Below are positions 18,001 through 42,000 of a stretch of 64,000 nucleotides of DNA, in pieces (position 1 is the stretch's first letter; each line of letters begins with the position of its first letter). Origin of the DNA: an uncultured Nitrososphaerota archaeon (GTDB lineage: Archaea; Thermoproteota; Nitrososphaeria; Nitrososphaerales; Nitrosopumilaceae); contig CAWGPD010000002.1 in the NCBI GenBank assembly GCA_963824385.1, forward strand, positions 224,001 to 288,000, in the 5' to 3' direction. Made by a program: the position numbers.

Positions 18001-21000
18001 TCTAAAAGTCAATCACATGATTACAAGTATCCTTTGAAATCTATCTCTAGGTTTTGTCCCATTTTGTTAAATTTGTGATTAAACTAAAGTTTTATGACAT
18101 TAGTTATCCAGACAAGCAAATTAAGAATTATCGATTTTAGCCTTTGAGGAAATTAAACATTGTAATAATTTGTTTACTACTTTAATGTCATAATGCTTTC
18201 ATTTTCTCCTCAACAATCTGCCTATATTTTGGAAAGTTCGTTATCATATACTCTGATTCCGATGTTTCAATAAATATAGAATCTTCAATTGCAATGAATA
18301 GATGAGCAATATCTTTTGGAATATGTATTATTGCAGGTGCCTTGAATGTTTGAACTGTTTCTTGATCGATAGAAATGTCATTGAATCTGACTTCTACTTG
18401 ACCAGAAATTAATGTATGATCTTGATCATATTTGTGATAATGACCTCCACGAGCAAACCCCTTCCTAGTCTCTATAAGGTTGATTTTCATATTGTTATAT
18501 GAATAGAAGATGATCTTACCCCTTACATCATCAATTTCCTTTTCAAATTTTAAATTCACAAAATTAATAATTAACTAATTACTATTTCAAGACTTCCAAA
18601 TTTTTTATTATAGTCATCTGACATGTACAGTAATTAGAATCAAAATTCTTTTTATGTTAATATCCAAGATAAACATTACATTTACACATAAAAAAAAGAA
18701 ATATATCCAAAACTAAAGTTGTTTATTATTGTACCATGAATTAGTCAAGTATCTGTGCAATTAAAATAATGTTCTAAATTAAATTGACTTTGATGTTTTA
18801 GATAATCTTTAAGATCAAGATAAAAATATTACATGTATGAAAAATTTTCAATATGCACCAAAACAAATCTATGATCAATTTGGAAAATATTTTCCATTTT
18901 CAACTGTAGATGTAATAATATTCCAACAAGACTCTATTCTTTTGATAAAACGAAAAATAATTCCTTACAAGGGAAAGTGGCATTTTCCTGGAGGACTGAT
19001 ACGAAAAAATGAAAAAATAAAAGATGCTGCAAAACGTGTTGTTAAAGTAGAATTGAATTTAGATATAAAACTTGAAAATTTTTTAGGAGTTTATGAAAAT
19101 CCTATTAGAACTCGTCATGATATAACACATTGTTTTATTGCGACTATGAAAAATAAAATTAACAATGATTATGAAACCAAATCAATAAAATTCTTTCAAA
19201 AAATTCCAAACAACACAATTCCATATCATAAATTAATAATTAAAGATGCATTTGAATATATGAAAATAGCAAAGAAAATTTCTTATCGTCGGTAAGTATT
19301 ATATTTTAATTATAATTTAAATTAATTAAAAAATATTATTCATTTGTTTTTTATAATTACATAATTATTTACTTGCTAAAAAAAATATTTTATAATTTGT
19401 TACAATTCAATTTTATTTTTTAAAATGATCAAAATTTTAAAAATTAATTTAGAAAAAATATTTTTCTAAAAATTATTCATTTGACATAATTTAGAAATTT
19501 TTTAACTAAAATTAAAAAAATAGATTTTATTTGATAGTCCAAAAAGGACACCTAAAATGGTCTTGTTGCCAGAACGGTTAATCTATCCATTCGATAATTC
19601 CTCTCCTCTTTAATCCAATGTTGGATAATTTTACAATGTTGGAAATTATGCAATATTTCCCAGATTCTCTAGAATTGATCCTAGACTATTCTGTAATTCA
19701 TTTTAAAATTTCTGATCTAAAAAAAATTAATTTTTGGAGTTTTGAAAAATGAAAATTGGTATTTTAATTTCTTGTTTGTTATTGATATCTGTTTTTAGCT
19801 ATGCATATGCTGATTCAATTATAATAGATGCTGATGTCAAACAAGCTGATACAAGACAAAACTTAACTCCATCATTACAAAATTCTTTGCCAACCAATAC
19901 AAAAAAATATTTTTCAATAAATCTAAATGAAAATATTGGAATTTCTGCAAATGATCAAAAACCATCTTCTCCAAATTCTAAATCTATGATGGTTGGATCC
20001 ATAAAAAGAATTTCTCTTTCTGAATATATTTCAATAACTACAGCTGGACTAGATCATAATTCGATTGCAATTTTTAAAAATAATAATATGGATAAAATTA
20101 CAACACTTGAACAACTTTCTTATCCTGAAAGAATAAGACTTAATGGAAAAAATGTTTTAGTTGATAATTATAATGTAAATCTTTTACTTGATCAATTTCC
20201 AATTGTCAAGGTTACAAATAATCTTCTAACTAATCTTTACTATGAAAAAATTACTTATTGCTGTATCGAGGAAAAAATTCAAATTGTAAATGATATTGCA
20301 TTTGTTGATAATTTCTTACTTGAAAATAACATTCCACAATTTTACCAATTAGATAATATTGCAAGTACTGACTTTGCTGACGTTGTACATGATTTGTCTG
20401 CCAGTACTAATCCTACAATTCTTCTCTTGTTGGTACTCCTTTCGAGTTATTTGTTATACTCTTACGAGGACGTAAAAATAAAGTATAACAAAAATAGAAT
20501 TTTTTCATTTTGTTTTATTTTGATTCTTGCTTTATCTTCAATCTTTACTCCGTTTTCGATATCTCAAAGTTATTGGGGTTATGCATATGGTGAGGTTGAA
20601 AGCAATTCGTCTAGTGCAATATACTCTACTACCCCACAAAATTCATTATCTCTTACGAACCCGGCTAGTAATTCAACCATATATCATACTACACAAGTAT
20701 CGCAGAATGATACATCTCAGACAGGTAATCTCACATACTATCATTGGAACTTGTTCCATTCTAAGAACCAGACAAGCTTACCATACCATATATCACTAAA
20801 TGCTACACCCAATGCAGGCAATTCTACATCCCCTCATTGGAACTCGTCGCATTCTAGGAGCCAGACAAGCTTACCATATCATACATCGCAGAATGTTCCA
20901 TCTCAAACAAGCAGCCCCACACCCTTACAACTCCCTAATGGAGTAAATACCCAGCCAACACCTGCACTCAATGGTGTTGGTATGAGTGATGTACTCACAA

Positions 21001-39000: not shown

Positions 39001-42000
39001 AAAATAGAGCAGCAGGAACAACAGCAAGACCTGCAGCCTACTTTACCAACAACGGACAGCCAGTGTATGGTACAATCTCACTTGTAGTAGATGGTAATAC
39101 TGTTTACACTTCTCCAGGACAAGTATTTGCCAAAGGACAGACTGCAGTAGGACTAGAATGGCAGACTCAACCAACAGATAGTCTTGTCAATCACAAGATT
39201 GAGGCAGTAGCCAACATATACGACAAGTCATTTACTGTTCAAGCCAACATCATTACCTTCTCATCAATAAAGACCCAATCCATAGCACAACCAATTACTA
39301 TATCTTCAATCAATGACAACAGCGGTAATGCAATTGCTACTCCACAGATTCTCTATTCTTCGTTTAACAATGATGGTAACATGAGATTCAAGGTATCTGC
39401 ACCTGATGGAACATGTGTGATAGGCCCATCTGATGACTGTCTTGTTAAGGACTCGACATTTGATTTGCCAGGACAAATAAAGAGTGTAGTTATAGGCGAC
39501 CAAGTTTTCAGAGTCAGATATTCTGGAACAAATGATCCGCTAGAAAGATTCTCTATCACATCAGTAGATCCTATAGTCGGAACATGGAATGTTGAGATTG
39601 ATTCTCAGGTAGACCTTACACCACAGACACAGGTAATGGAAACTGTCCCACTCAAGATAACCTTTAGACCAGTGGAAATACCATTTGAATCTGATTAGTA
39701 AATTTATTTTTATTATCTAATTTCCAACTCAGGGAAATGCAGTGGCTTGTGCAAGATGCGAATCTAATTCTGAAATCTTGATCCTTTCTTGACTCATTGA
39801 ATCACGATTTCGTATTGTAACTGTATTATCTTCCAATGTCTGATGATCAATTGTTACTGCGAAGGGGGCACCTATCTCATCAAGTCTTCTATATCTTCTT
39901 CCTATTGCACCAGAATGATCTAAAAATGCATCATACTTCTTTTTTAACATAAAATACACCTCATCTGTCTTTTCTGCCAAGCCATCTTTTTTTACAAGCG
40001 ATAATACACCAACATGAATTGGTGCAAGATAAGGCTCCAAAGAAAGAACAACTCTCTCATTTTCTTTATCTTCACGTAGTCTATGTTCTATCATAGTATA
40101 GAGACTTCGGTCTATACCCATTGATATCTCAAAGACATGTGGAAGAACCTTGATCTCATCATCAATTACCTCAAATTTTTCCTTGCTTGTATTGGCATGG
40201 CTCTTTAAATCATAATCTGATCTATAGTTACATGCAACAAGTTCCAACCAACCTGTATTGGTTTCTACTTCAAAATCAAAAGCAACTGTTGCATAGAATG
40301 CTTTTTCTTTTTCTCCTAGTTTTCTAAATCTACTTCTATTAACATCAATCCCAGTTTTTTGATAAAACTCCACTAGTAATCCAAGATAATATGCAACAAG
40401 CTTGTTTGGTATTACCCCAGAATCTACAGCTTCCTTACAAGTCATGCTTTTTATCGTATCATCTACCATTATTCTGATTATAGTATTTTCTACCTCTGAG
40501 AATTTTGATATATCGTCAAGCTTCTCTGGATTACAAAAGACCTCAATCTCTGCTTGGTAAAACTCTCTTAATCTAAGAAGACTCTGTCTTGGTGAGATCT
40601 CATTTCTAAAACTCTTTCCAATTTGGGCAACTCCTATTGGAAGCTTTCCTCTCATGGTCTTGAAAAGTCTTGGAAAATCAACAAAGATTGACTGACATGT
40701 TTCAGGTCTTAGGTATGCAGGTTCTCCCTGTGCTCCTATTCCAACCTTGAACATCATGTTGAATTTTTTAATATTTTCAAGACTTCCCTTACATTTGGGA
40801 CATGTAATCTTCTTCTCTTCTATTATTCTATCAAATTCTGTCAAGTCTGCATTTTCAGGAATTATTATTTTGGTAATCTCTTCTATCATTTTGTCTGCTC
40901 TAAAGATTGATTTGCATTTAGTACATGTTGCAATAGGATCTGCAAAGCTTGCAAGGTGACCAGAGGCTACAAAAACATTCTGTGACATAATCTGAGAACC
41001 ATCAATCTCCCACATTCTATCTCTTCTTACTAATTCCCTTCTCCATAGTTCTATGAATTTGTTCTTTAGGCTAACTCCAGACGGGCCGTATTCCCAAAAA
41101 CCTGCATGGGCATCTGAATAGATCTCACAACTAGGAAAATAGAATCCGCGTTCCAGCGCAAGTTGCATTATTTGTTCATAATTCATAAAAATCCAAACTC
41201 TTCCAAATTAAGCCAATTCTTTTGCCTTATTCAAGTTTCCAATGTCATCTCTTCTTTCATCAATAGGAGTCTCTAAGATTATTGGAATTTTTTTACGGCT
41301 AATTGATTTTACAATATAGCCTAGTCCTTTCTCGCCTATGTGTCCCAATCCAATATGCTCATGTCTGTCCAGATTACATCCTAGTTCTCCCTTTGAATCG
41401 TTCAAGTGTAAAATTTTAAGATGCTCAAAGCCTATTGCTTTATCTAATTTTTCAAGTGTTGATTTTGCCTCCTTTTCAGTCCTCATGTCATATCCTGCAG
41501 CAAAAGCATGGCAAGTATCAAAACATATACCAAATCTTTTTGCAGGTTTTAGCTGAAATAATATAGATAGCAAGCTGATTAAAGATCTGATCCTACACTA
41601 TTTTTTTGACCTGCAGTATTCTCAAGAAGAATCATAACATCGTCTGAAGTTTCTGCGGCAGCCTTTGTAAAGGCCTTTACTAGCATCTCAATTCCTTTTG
41701 CATCTCCTTCACCCTTGTGACTTCCCAGATGTGCAACGATATATGGAATTCCTAGTTTGCTACATCTTTTTATCTCGTCTATGAGAGAACCAACAGATCT
41801 TGCAAAGGGGTCTTCCTCGGGTGAAGATAAATTTGGCAAGTATGGCATGTGGGCAACAGTAGAAAATCGATCAATTTTACTTGCAGCAAGTTTTTCTTTG
41901 AAACTTGCAACATCTTTACTTGCTAGAGGCTTTGCAGCCCATCCACGGGGATTACGAGTAAAGATTTGAAATGCTGTACATCCAGTTGCAACTGCGTTAT

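Follow-up and report, generated by a model that had tools for sequence, protein, structure and literature searches.

The window, the whole analysed stretch of 64,000 nucleotides, comes from a soil ammonia-oxidising archaeon and contains one gene on the plus strand (19749–39695) with a putatively secreted product of about 6,650 residues, about two-thirds of which consists of about 200 copies of a 20-residue repeat. The survey's finding of a giant plus-strand gene with an array of about 203 units was confirmed by TRF (202.5 copies), by the open frames and by colinear orthologues. GC content was 0.22 in 19000–19999, and the gene stops with TAG at 39696–39698, behind which come TAA and a run rich in T. 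A Pentapeptide gene lies nearby at 14187–16307 (Pfam match, 1.1e-30). The features of the giant gene are as follows.

19690–19748, plus strand: possible archaeal promoter from sequence reading only, an AT-rich stretch that includes a TTTTAAAAT box some 40 nt 5' of the ATG
19749–19817, plus strand: start codon and signal-peptide-like N-terminus (MKIGILISCLLLISVFSYAYA/DS), judged by eye from the translation
21405–21920, plus strand: LamG (concanavalin-A-like jelly-roll) domain, aa 553–724, from Pfam Laminin_G_3
22428–22679, plus strand: MG2/filamin-like Ig-type beta-sandwich, aa 894–977, from a sub-threshold Pfam MG2 match
24549–36810, plus strand: array of about 203–210 units of 60 nt (20 aa), from TRF, unit logo and HMM
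32109–35050, plus strand: near-perfect higher-order block of 420 nt (7 units), where copy number is least certain, from block-to-block identity
36928–37155, plus strand: SpaA/prealbumin-like domain directly after the array, from Pfam SpaA
38208–39695, plus strand: conserved module of 496 aa at the C-terminus, four Ig-like beta-sandwiches in the model, from homology, AF2 and Foldseek
39324–39599, plus strand: final Ig-like domain, which has a conserved pair of Cys residues and also occurs in a second conserved secreted protein

The N-terminus consists of a basic residue, at least 15 hydrophobic residues and an AYA/D site, as judged by eye, and the N-termini of the orthologues are similar, with comparable hydrophobic segments ending in NA/E and NA/D. 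The Pfam results of the survey were reproduced, and no true family was found on the repeat. Laminin_G_3 (PF13385) matched with 58 bits (cut-off 27.6; E 1.6e-15) over profile positions 3–151 of 151; MG2 (PF01835) reached 25.1–29.2 bits, below its cut-off of 32.8 for family membership, and this region is likely an Ig-like sandwich; and SpaA (PF17802) marginally exceeded its cut-off of 23.1 with 25.0–26.1 bits. The C-terminal module is 46–78% identical to the C-terminal ends of the giant ORFs of relatives; its AF2 model (pLDDT 84.8) matched, in Foldseek, Ig-like arrays of adhesins including PrgB, AgI/II and SiiE. Its last Ig-like domain shares 37% identity over 106 aa (E 2e-11) with the domain that ends a 1170-aa LTD/MG2 protein from genome G014, and is weakly matched by ORFs of about 1160–1180 aa in many genomes of the genus. 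The protein ends in ...KITFRPVEIPFESD without a hydrophobic tail, and neither a membrane anchor nor a sorting signal was found at either end.

Analysis of the reading frames revealed plus-strand open frames of 1661, 131, 71, 191, 379, 554 and 3161 aa, every one of which carries the repeat, and the repeat runs on across every frame switch, always on the plus strand. The lengths reported in the survey were correct, except that its list omitted the 71-aa piece; likewise, its six frame switches are real in the window sequence, but the total in 19749–39698 is eight, since two further breaks, near 37.9 and 38.2 kb, precede the final 496-aa frame in addition to the six at 24.7–28.5 kb.

24675–24735, plus strand: frame break 1, a 61-nt unit (GTCAGCTTCAC), from unit-length comparison
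25036–25096, plus strand: frame break 2, a 61-nt unit as in break 1
25217–25277, plus strand: frame break 3, a 61-nt unit as in break 1 with one G>A variant
25758–25818, plus strand: frame break 4, a 61-nt unit as in break 1
26839–26897, plus strand: frame break 5, a 59-nt unit (GTAGCTCAC)
28461–28521, plus strand: frame break 6, a 61-nt unit (GCTATCTCTATCC; GCTACTCTATCC in four sibling units)
37575–38223, plus strand: low-quality assembly patch with breaks 7 (37901) and 8 (38223), from read-derived contigs

Breaks 7 and 8 were shown directly to be assembly errors: contigs of four runs (X1, X2, X5 and X6, from three studies) agreed against the window in lacking the extra base at 37901 and 38223 (4 of 4 runs), in a comparison in which rare variants drop out and two of the four runs may be the assembly's own source. 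The same contigs also differed from the window by one nucleotide less at 37575, an additional G behind 37580, an additional CTC behind 38160 and 13 substitutions at 37731–38181, and the orthologue in genome G009 reads through both break sites. The six array breaks (five units of 61 nt and one of 59 nt) each change the length by ±1 nt and fall at two spots, at both of which sibling units keep the frame; siblings of the break-1 type are 60 nt long, four with GTAGCTTCAC and one with GTCACTTCAC. A decayed pseudogene, in which these frameshifts are real, duplication within the repeat copied one 61-nt unit into four places and this strain makes no full-length protein, could equally account for the identical insertion GTCAGC in four breaks, and the net shift of +4 offers no mutual compensation. 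We nevertheless consider this quite improbable: both testable breaks are errors, four length states occur at one 8-nt spot in otherwise identical units, which looks like a consensus trouble spot, 9.5 kb of the array is open in one frame, and the orthologues are intact. Moreover, 26 of the 158 ORFs (16%) of at least 200 aa in G014 with an orthologue here were frame-split in this genome, at least two of these 26 cases (q27 and q66) being paralogue artefacts; the assembly has five contigs and 86% completeness, and the adjoining AP-endonuclease gene is also split. Since the two testable breaks are absent from the read-derived contigs, the orthologues are intact and conserved genes are split at this rate, we read the six array breaks, too, as errors of an indel-rich assembly. 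The attribution of the breaks to sequencing errors in the survey was thus demonstrated for two of the eight and is inferred for the other six.

Within the array, TRF revealed a 60-nt period with 202.5 copies at 24549–36715 and higher-order periods of 180 and 420 nt, and the HMM covered about 210 unit-equivalents. The unit consensus is IPLSDQLTxxKSxSxSLSDS; in the logo from 192 regular units, D5 and D19 were present in 192 of 192, and diversity of the units at the three codon positions was 0.31, 0.19 and 0.41. The 420-nt blocks starting at 32109–34209 are 99.8–100% identical to the following block, compared with 96% for the block at 34629, and the copy number in the near-identical part may be wrong. 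Twenty minus-strand ORFs of 109–410 aa lie within the array; these are by-products of the repeat, in agreement with their dismissal as false in the survey.

Structure prediction by AlphaFold2 with an alignment (46 rows) yielded a beta-solenoid with one coil per unit and a strict 20-residue period (pLDDT 73, pTM 0.71), in the one confident model of five, the other four scoring 56–40. Foldseek with the repeat model returned nothing at E≤0.001, whereas the VIA-align matches were all beta-solenoids. In the units of relatives (40 rows, 17–66% identical to the query), positions 1, 3, 7 and 17 were hydrophobic in 94, 89, 70 and 90%, respectively, and D/E occupied position 5 in 92% and position 19 in 95%. 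In the model, these near-invariant acidic residues 19 and 5 flank one tight turn, positions 1, 3, 7 and 17 presumably form the hydrophobic core, and the even Ser/Thr positions would face the solvent. A solenoid with one 20-residue coil per unit, as proposed in the survey, is the best available model, predicted by AF2 with the alignment and matched to beta-solenoids by VIA-align. The rise per beta-solenoid coil is usually about 0.48 nm, so that about 200 coils would give a thin rod about 0.1 micrometre long.

The array might instead not be folded as a solenoid but form an extended, mucin-like spacer, rich in Ser and Thr and perhaps O-glycosylated, of the kind seen in serine-rich-repeat or SD-repeat adhesins. 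Ser and Thr make up 37% of the 4082 array residues, four of the five AF2 models are poor, and a Nitrosocosmicus paper mentions "putative serine-rich adhesins" in ammonia-oxidising archaea (PMC13245735). NCBIfam gave weak matches to NF033609 (ClfA SD region, 22.2 bits) and NF033849 (serine-rich, 18.4 bits), but these scores are far under the cut-offs of 1150 and 650, respectively, and the strict 20-residue period, the alternation of polar and apolar residues typical of beta strands, and the conservation of positions 1/3/7/17 and 5/19 in relatives down to 17% identity make an unfolded spacer unlikely.

Beads of closed beta-flower-like barrels, each with about six 20-residue hairpins, would also fit a unit of this size: petals are hairpins according to Durairaj et al. 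2023 (PMC10584680), and our own division of 125 by 6 puts a petal at about 20 aa. Bflower_3 (PF21786; 6-fold, 125 aa) matched the diverged array end (36091–36810) with 33.9 bits (E 3.3e-8) and 35491–36090 with 19.6 bits, and one close relative has a precomputed PF21786 match. The best score nevertheless falls under the cut-off of 34, six further pieces of the array were not matched at E≤1, the higher-order repetition runs in 3 and 7 units rather than 6, and AF2 gave an open solenoid. The semi-conserved hairpin-tip motif [DNEQ]xxG described in that paper is missing from the array, which has one Gly in 4082 residues; in relatives, Gly at unit position 2 (26% of units) lies outside this motif. 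Beta-flowers are closed 4- to 6-fold barrels of about 100–125 aa, in contrast to the array, which is open and runs to about 4,100 aa, and we regard such beads as very improbable.

Comparison of the predicted solenoid with known structures placed it closest in geometry to region IV of the Marinomonas primoryensis antifreeze/ice-binding RTX adhesin (3p4g), a 19-residue Ca2+ beta-helix (Z 19.4, rmsd 2.3 Å, 219 of 240 residues, 13% identity). Both systems are giant surface proteins with Ig-like repeats and short coils (19 and 20 residues) with conserved Asp, and two acidic positions, putative Ca2+ ligands, flank the modelled turn here; coils of the RTX and MpAFP type span 18–19 residues, with Asp at the turn binding Ca2+. 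The RTX turn comprises 2 x 9 residues, which the 18-residue unit variants of this family recall, and RTX motifs have the form GGxGxDxUx or xGTGNDxuxuGGxuxGxux. The array, however, lacks a glycine-rich motif and any sequence relation to them, and the solenoid itself is a 200-coil extender instead of a small terminal ligand-binding domain, in an archaeon with a putative Sec signal and no type I secretion. Assignment to RTX beta-rolls or MpAFP-type helices is not borne out by the sequence, as the unit has no Gly and there was no repeat-family Pfam match and no PDB match (A2 profile).

The shafts of the two-partner-secretion (TPS) adhesins FHA, HMW1 and EtpA and the beta-helices of tailspikes and pectate lyases are likewise long single-chain parallel beta-helices used as fibres (Z 15.1–15.3 for EtpA and HMW1; 14–17 for tailspikes, AlgE4, PfbA and RsaA), but their coils are three-sheeted and irregular in length, and they superpose less well than 3p4g, with an rmsd of about 3 Å. 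The N-terminal part matched only Laminin_G_3, MG2, Filamin and Pentaxin in Pfam; thus neither a TPS domain nor a haemagglutinin repeat family turned up. Curli CsgA (8c50), a two-sheet stack of repeats of about 20 residues each, had the top Z of the comparison (22.2, with all 240 residues aligned); however, the rmsd was 8.6 Å, the array lacks a Gln/Asn ladder and is not matched by Curlin in Pfam, and CsgA fibres are polymers of small subunits, in contrast to the single chain that holds every coil here. Pentapeptide repeats (PF00805), with A(D/N)LXX pentads and also 20 residues per coil, matched no array piece at E≤1 in a scan that detected the neighbouring gene at 14187–16307.

In G014 and G005 the orthologues, of 2724 and 2766 aa respectively, are each encoded by one uninterrupted frame that begins with a signal-like segment and lies beside the same class II tRNA-synthetase gene. 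The N-terminal part is colinear with its counterpart in G005 (47% identity), as are pieces 8 and 9 of the giant gene with G005 residues 2164–2233 and 2277–2766, respectively. Unit number ranges from about 23 to about 210 across orthologues, and this great difference suggests that rod length evolves fast, by unequal recombination. The survey had proposed a new repeat family, which holds in that no relative was found in Pfam, NCBIfam or PDB; the repeat is, however, not peculiar to this protein but a large unnamed family, present in 79 of 301 genomes of the class, with 971 cluster representatives matching at E≤1e-30, and with a published member in Ca. Nitrososphaera evergladensis, there called a "hypothetical protein". 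Three genomes from other genera, each a single contig and 99% complete, contain open frames of 5212, 4232 and 4062 aa in which about 78–98 or more units were detected. The claim that this is the largest protein of an ammonia-oxidising archaeon stands for the family members found in this analysis only; second in size is the 5212-aa frame.

Taken as a whole, 19749–39695 is read, with a probability of roughly 0.6, as one gene that is probably intact and whose product is a fibrillar surface protein, secreted and about 6,650 residues long, with the array coiled as a beta-solenoid, the eight breaks due to assembly errors and, as the most likely function, a role as fibrillar adhesin or spacer. A Sec-type signal peptide would export the protein, whose head of about 1,600 aa, with the LamG jelly-roll and Ig-like sandwiches, would be followed by the roughly 200 tandem units, the prealbumin-like domain, an Ala/Pro/Gly linker and the four Ig-like domains. 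The rod might keep LamG and a variable N-terminal tip, as the binding head, at a distance from a conserved Ig-like base at the cell envelope; with the head outward, this orientation is a guess, because no anchor or sorting signal was found. By analogy, the LamG domain and a C-terminal module resembling the Ig-like stalks of PrgB, AgI/II and SiiE suggest an adhesin-like build. Bacterial fibrillar adhesins combine a stalk of tandem domains with an adhesive domain (Monzon et al. 2021, PMC8286594), and their overall build corresponds in the putative signal, the putative binding domain, the long stalk and the Ig-like domains; here the stalk is a long row of tandem repeats (about 203–210 units) and LamG is the candidate adhesive domain. 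Their stalks are built from Ig-like domains of about 100 aa, in contrast to a 20-residue solenoid repeat in an archaeon with an S-layer and no anchor found.

A more far-reaching proposal, which we hold to be doubtful, is that the 20- and 18-residue units represent a large unnamed class of glycine-free beta-solenoids in which the two near-invariant acidic residues beside the single tight turn stack into continuous carboxylate ladders that bind cations, as Ca2+ is bound in RTX rolls. If so, ammonia oxidisers would carry rods of about 0.1 micrometre with a net negative charge (about -100 for the whole array), which would be stiff only with metal bound and could serve as adhesive fibres. Nitrosopumilus maritimus has a negatively charged S-layer with a cation-collecting function (PMC11153153), and such rods could carry S-layer cation collection far out from the cell surface.

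The survey's finding of a giant plus-strand gene carrying a tandem 20-residue repeat was real, and its tandem array, with periods of 60, 180 and 420 nt and a near-perfect 420-nt block, was reproduced. Tandem Repeats Finder placed 202.5 copies of a 60-nt period at 24549-36715, with higher-order periods of 180 and 420 nt; the 420-nt blocks starting at 32109-34209 were 99.8-100% identical with the next block, and the block at 34629 was 96% identical. The plus strand of the gene was covered by the following stop-free frames:

19746-24728, plus strand, stop-free frame of 1661 aa
24697-25089, plus strand, stop-free frame of 131 aa
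25058-25270, plus strand, stop-free frame of 71 aa
25239-25811, plus strand, stop-free frame of 191 aa
25780-26916, plus strand, stop-free frame of 379 aa
26853-28514, plus strand, stop-free frame of 554 aa
28483-37965, plus strand, stop-free frame of 3161 aa
37751-38239, plus strand, stop-free frame of 163 aa
38208-39695, plus strand, stop-free frame of 496 aa

These nine frames imply eight frame switches; all six switches counted in the survey were present, but two more lay in the non-repetitive C-terminal part. The 20 minus-strand ORFs of 109-410 aa called in the array are by-products of the repeat, as had been supposed, and the array's strong excess of C over G (skew -0.5 to -0.68) was consistent with a Ser/Thr/Leu/Asp/Pro-rich coding strand. 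The strand opposite such arrays likewise lacked stops for as many as 1,983 codons and even matched the repeat profile (L084 6947-11875 (+), L085 6302-12250 (+), and 27719-35455 (-) in the window), so that in any genome with the family gene callers could choose the wrong strand. The genome itself contained an archaeal amoA (354 bits).

Each of the six array breaks coincided with a single off-length unit, of 61 nt in five cases and 59 nt in one, instead of 60 nt. Four of the six shared the string GTCAGCTTCAC, while sibling units that were otherwise identical read GTAGCTTCAC (four copies, in frame), GTCACTTCAC (one copy, in frame) or GTAGCTCAC (the 59-nt unit); the sixth break read GCTATCTCTATCC, where four siblings had GCTACTCTATCC. 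Four length states at one 8-nt spot of otherwise identical units resemble a trouble spot of the consensus, although a real insertion that was spread by duplication may also have produced such a pattern. An exact-pattern scan of metagenome contigs for the in-frame and frameshifted unit variants returned no matches.

For the C-terminal breaks, Logan contigs of four sequencing runs from three studies (X1 and X2, possible sources of the assembly; X5 and X6, not so marked) were compared with the window at 36800-39800. All four runs deviated from the window in the same way: one base was absent at each of 37575, 37901 and 38223, G was added behind 37580 and CTC behind 38160, and 13 substitutions were found at 37731-38181. 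Positions 37901 and 38223 fall exactly within the two C-terminal frame overlaps, and the absence of these bases from the reads makes the read-derived frame continuous from 28483 to 39695. The orthologue in relative G009 was likewise uninterrupted at both sites (...DWSKPSNF...LQLPKN...DSNGCPVSD... and ...GGGAGPYLKIQDISYDICDKQ...). The 13 substitutions and five indels were confined to a patch at 37575-38223, the remainder of 36800-39800 being concordant in X1, X5 and X6, and the X1 contigs stopped at 38016/38018, adjoining an Ala/Pro/Gly low-complexity linker; the patch may be a short-read assembly gap bridged by noisier data.

Split genes were frequent elsewhere in this genome. Among 158 conserved genes (ORFs of at least 200 aa from 400 kb of the single-contig relative G014, with orthologue coverage of at least 70%), 26 were split over frames, at least two of which (q27 and q66) are tandem-paralogue artefacts, and completeness was 86% in five contigs versus 97-99% in relatives with 1-10 contigs. 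Three neighbours in the window showed similar arrangements:

41208-42052, minus strand, xylose-isomerase-like TIM-barrel / AP-endonuclease gene as two ORFs in different frames (41208-41573 and 41579-42052)
14187-17721, plus strand, pentapeptide-repeat and HYR protein (706 aa) overlapping a second HYR ORF (496 aa) in another frame at 16231-16307
42053-43190, plus strand, short DNA primase large-subunit ORF (197 aa, profile positions 17-193 of 266) with a 107-aa ORF before it

The two AP-endonuclease ORFs, of 121 aa (profile positions 144-234) and 157 aa (1-136), correspond to a single 283-aa open frame in relative G017, and this split is a further sign of indel errors in the assembly. The pentapeptide/HYR pair, just upstream of the giant gene, is probably one more surface-protein gene split by an indel, and the primase gene is possibly split as well.

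The survey had taken the breaks for sequencing errors. We likewise read all eight as assembly errors; the two C-terminal ones are absent from the contigs of four runs, and for the six in the array we infer the same origin. Programmed frameshifting was dropped, since the break sites are variable and two of them vanish in the reads. With the broken units set to 60 nt and the read-derived changes applied, the corrected gene comprises 6,648 codons by arithmetic, and it is most likely intact. The orthologue in G015, a near-complete 4-contig assembly, was also broken within its array (L014, contig C3, 947-13471 (-); frames of 2606, 266 and 1296 aa); frame errors seem to recur in the repeat arrays of this family.

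The 192 regular units had the consensus IPLSDQLTxxKSxSxSLSDS, with Asp at positions 5 and 19 in every one, and a diversity of 0.31/0.19/0.41 at the three codon positions. The 4082 array residues were dominated by Ser (21.7%), Leu (16.4%), Thr (15.6%) and Asp (9.8%), and included one Gly, no Cys and no Trp, at a net charge of -102. Relatives contributed 40 aligned rows with 17-66% identity to the query; in these, positions 1, 3, 7 and 17 were hydrophobic in 94, 89, 70 and 90%, D/E occupied position 5 in 92% and position 19 in 95%, and Ser/Thr prevailed at even positions. The repeat is therefore structural and does not simply reflect low complexity. No Pfam family had been reported on the repeat, and none was found here: array pieces gave listed matches without a significant single stretch, or with one only at E ~0.3. 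The exception was Bflower_3, which scored 33.9 bits, under its cut-off of 34, on the diverged array end and 19.6 bits on one other piece, and gave nothing in Pfam searches of six other array pieces. In the ESM Atlas, an array piece was nearest to unnamed 'hypothetical' clusters.

For 240 aa (12 units), AlphaFold2 with 46 rows produced a single confident model (pLDDT 73, pTM 0.71), the other four scoring 56-40. In this model, 16 strand-state residues alternated strictly with a four-residue break at S20-I1-P2-L3, and the two conserved acidic residues flanked the sole tight turn. Foldseek against the PDB gave no match at E<=0.001, as in the survey, the weak top rows being left-handed beta-helices, curli and tapirin, while VIA-align over 48,161 chains returned beta-solenoids exclusively. 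CsgA had the higher Z (22.2), yet an rmsd of 8.6 Å; 3p4g, the 19-residue Ca2+ beta-helix of the Marinomonas antifreeze adhesin, aligned over 219 residues with Z 19.4 and rmsd 2.3 Å, and AlgE4, RsaA, PfbA, tailspikes, EtpA and HMW1 reached Z 14-17. The residue-for-residue match with the 19-residue coil of 3p4g supports one coil per unit. A beta-solenoid rises ~0.48 nm per coil, at which 203-210 coils would form a rod of ~0.1 micrometre, the length that the survey had proposed; the solenoid fold is a moderately supported prediction. Asp at the turn is a Ca2+ ligand in RTX-type rolls, but their glycine-rich motif is absent from the repeat, and the likeness is therefore analogy, not membership.

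Outside the array, the ORF begins with MKIGILISCLLLISVFSYAYA/DS, a Sec-type signal as judged by eye. The LamG domain of the N-terminal part was recovered with Pfam (Laminin_G_3, aa 553-724, 58 bits), as was the SpaA/prealbumin-like domain directly behind the array; the MG2 assignment stood as an MG2/filamin-like sandwich at aa 894-977, but under the Pfam cut-off. NCBIfam, PDB sequence and ESM Atlas searches added no further domains in the non-repeat parts, and aa 25-552 had no usable ESM Atlas match. PDB sequence searches with the N part, the C-terminal module, alignment profiles A2 and A3 and a 1170-aa LTD/MG2 protein gave no significant match (sole A2 row, E 0.75). The N-terminal tip varies among orthologues: only residues 10-282 and 502-1650 aligned with G005, and the G014 alignment was limited to residues 516-1109 and the first repeat units (1531-1649).

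An Ala/Pro/Gly linker leads to the 496-aa C-terminal module, modelled as four beta-sandwiches (AlphaFold2, 25 aligned relatives, pLDDT 84.8) that resemble in Foldseek the Ig-like arrays of adhesins and complement MG domains (PrgB, AgI/II, SiiE, RTX-adhesin extender, titin). Of the 24 other genomes of the genus that were searched, 23 matched the module at E<=0.001 (a tally including the unpublished G019, G011 and G012), and full-length matches of 46-78% identity, several per genome, stood at the C-terminal end of giant ORFs. Its last Ig-like domain (39324-39599) shared 37% identity over 106 aa (E 2e-11) with the C-terminal domain of the conserved 1170-aa LTD/MG2 protein (L087:3929-7441 (-)), present in many genomes of the genus. 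This domain of ~100 aa with a conserved Cys pair (DGTCxIG...C), common to the giant and 1170-aa proteins, may serve secreted proteins of ammonia-oxidising archaea (AOA) in general for envelope attachment or sorting. The 1170-aa protein had no detectable sequence relation to any solved chain in the PDB search, and we thus make no claim for it as an S-layer protein. Examination of the giant protein's C-terminus revealed no hydrophobic anchor; because the module is common to paralogues and the last domain to another secreted protein, the C-end is the better candidate for the cell-side base.

The repeat was unnamed in the libraries searched, in line with the proposal of a new family, but it is widespread and not unique to the giant protein. 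A word-indexed search with 400 aa of the array matched 92 proteins of 701-2000 aa, many with LamG, MG2 or DUF2341; the few named ones include Thaumarchaeota and Nitrosotalea MAG proteins and one from a Pyrinomonadaceae bacterium. The period among the matches was 20 or 18 residues, with two short Phi-x-Phi-[ST]-[DE] strands per unit. A 46-row profile against 1.84 billion cluster representatives retrieved at least 10,001 proteins at E<=0.001, 4,890 at <=1e-10 and 971 at <=1e-30; among ten top matches whose names were retrieved were a Ca. Nitrososphaera evergladensis 'hypothetical protein', MAG proteins from Nitrososphaera and Thermoproteota, and one Rib/alpha-like protein from Streptococcus, a match that may be compositional. 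Pfam at E<=1e-5 named no family on 26 of the 30 strong members scanned; two of the 30 had LamG, one MG2 (plus two chance rows) and one GH16. Within the class, a 12-unit profile (E<=1e-5) found the repeat in 79 of 301 genomes and 18 of 67 genera, the unpublished G260 and G019 included. Single-contig genomes (99% complete) of other genera held open frames as long as 5212, 4232 and 4062 aa, in which 78-98 or more units were detected, and the giant protein was the longest family member found in these searches. Orthologues carried ~27 (G014), ~23 (G005), 100 or more (G015) and ~210 units (here), a range from which we conclude that the array grows and shrinks fast.

The protein combines an N-terminus of secreted type and a tip that varies among orthologues with a lectin-fold domain, a very long and regular repeat whose unit number changes fast, and Ig-like domains; this build would fit a fibrillar adhesin or spacer, in which rod length would set the reach of the binding head. 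Giant fibrillar surface proteins with a beta-helical shaft are a kind already known from bacteria; the repeat family, and such a shaft in archaeal ammonia oxidisers, both look new within the searches made. Searches of one literature collection, and of the Ca. N. evergladensis genome paper, gave no account of the repeat or of these giant proteins. The N. maritimus S-layer protein is described as a negatively charged, ammonium-trapping array of Ig-like domains, the last of which is thought to be the layer anchor (PMC11153153), and for AOA both 'putative serine-rich adhesins' and hair-like filaments are mentioned in work on Nitrosocosmicus (PMC13245735).

The libraries searched offered neither a family name nor a solved relative for the repeat, which nevertheless builds open frames of thousands of residues, occurs in about a quarter of the class genomes and strongly matches ~1,000 or more cluster representatives. 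Such genes call for caution, being split, with false opposite-strand ORFs called, where a long-read-only repeat consensus has indels. Ammonia-oxidising archaea drive nitrification, and to our knowledge next to nothing has been learnt about the appendages on their cell surface. Naming the family through an HMM of its 20-residue unit would bring annotation to a large group of surface proteins now called 'hypothetical', and the repeat offers a concrete structural target, possibly a metal-dependent, glycine-free solenoid.
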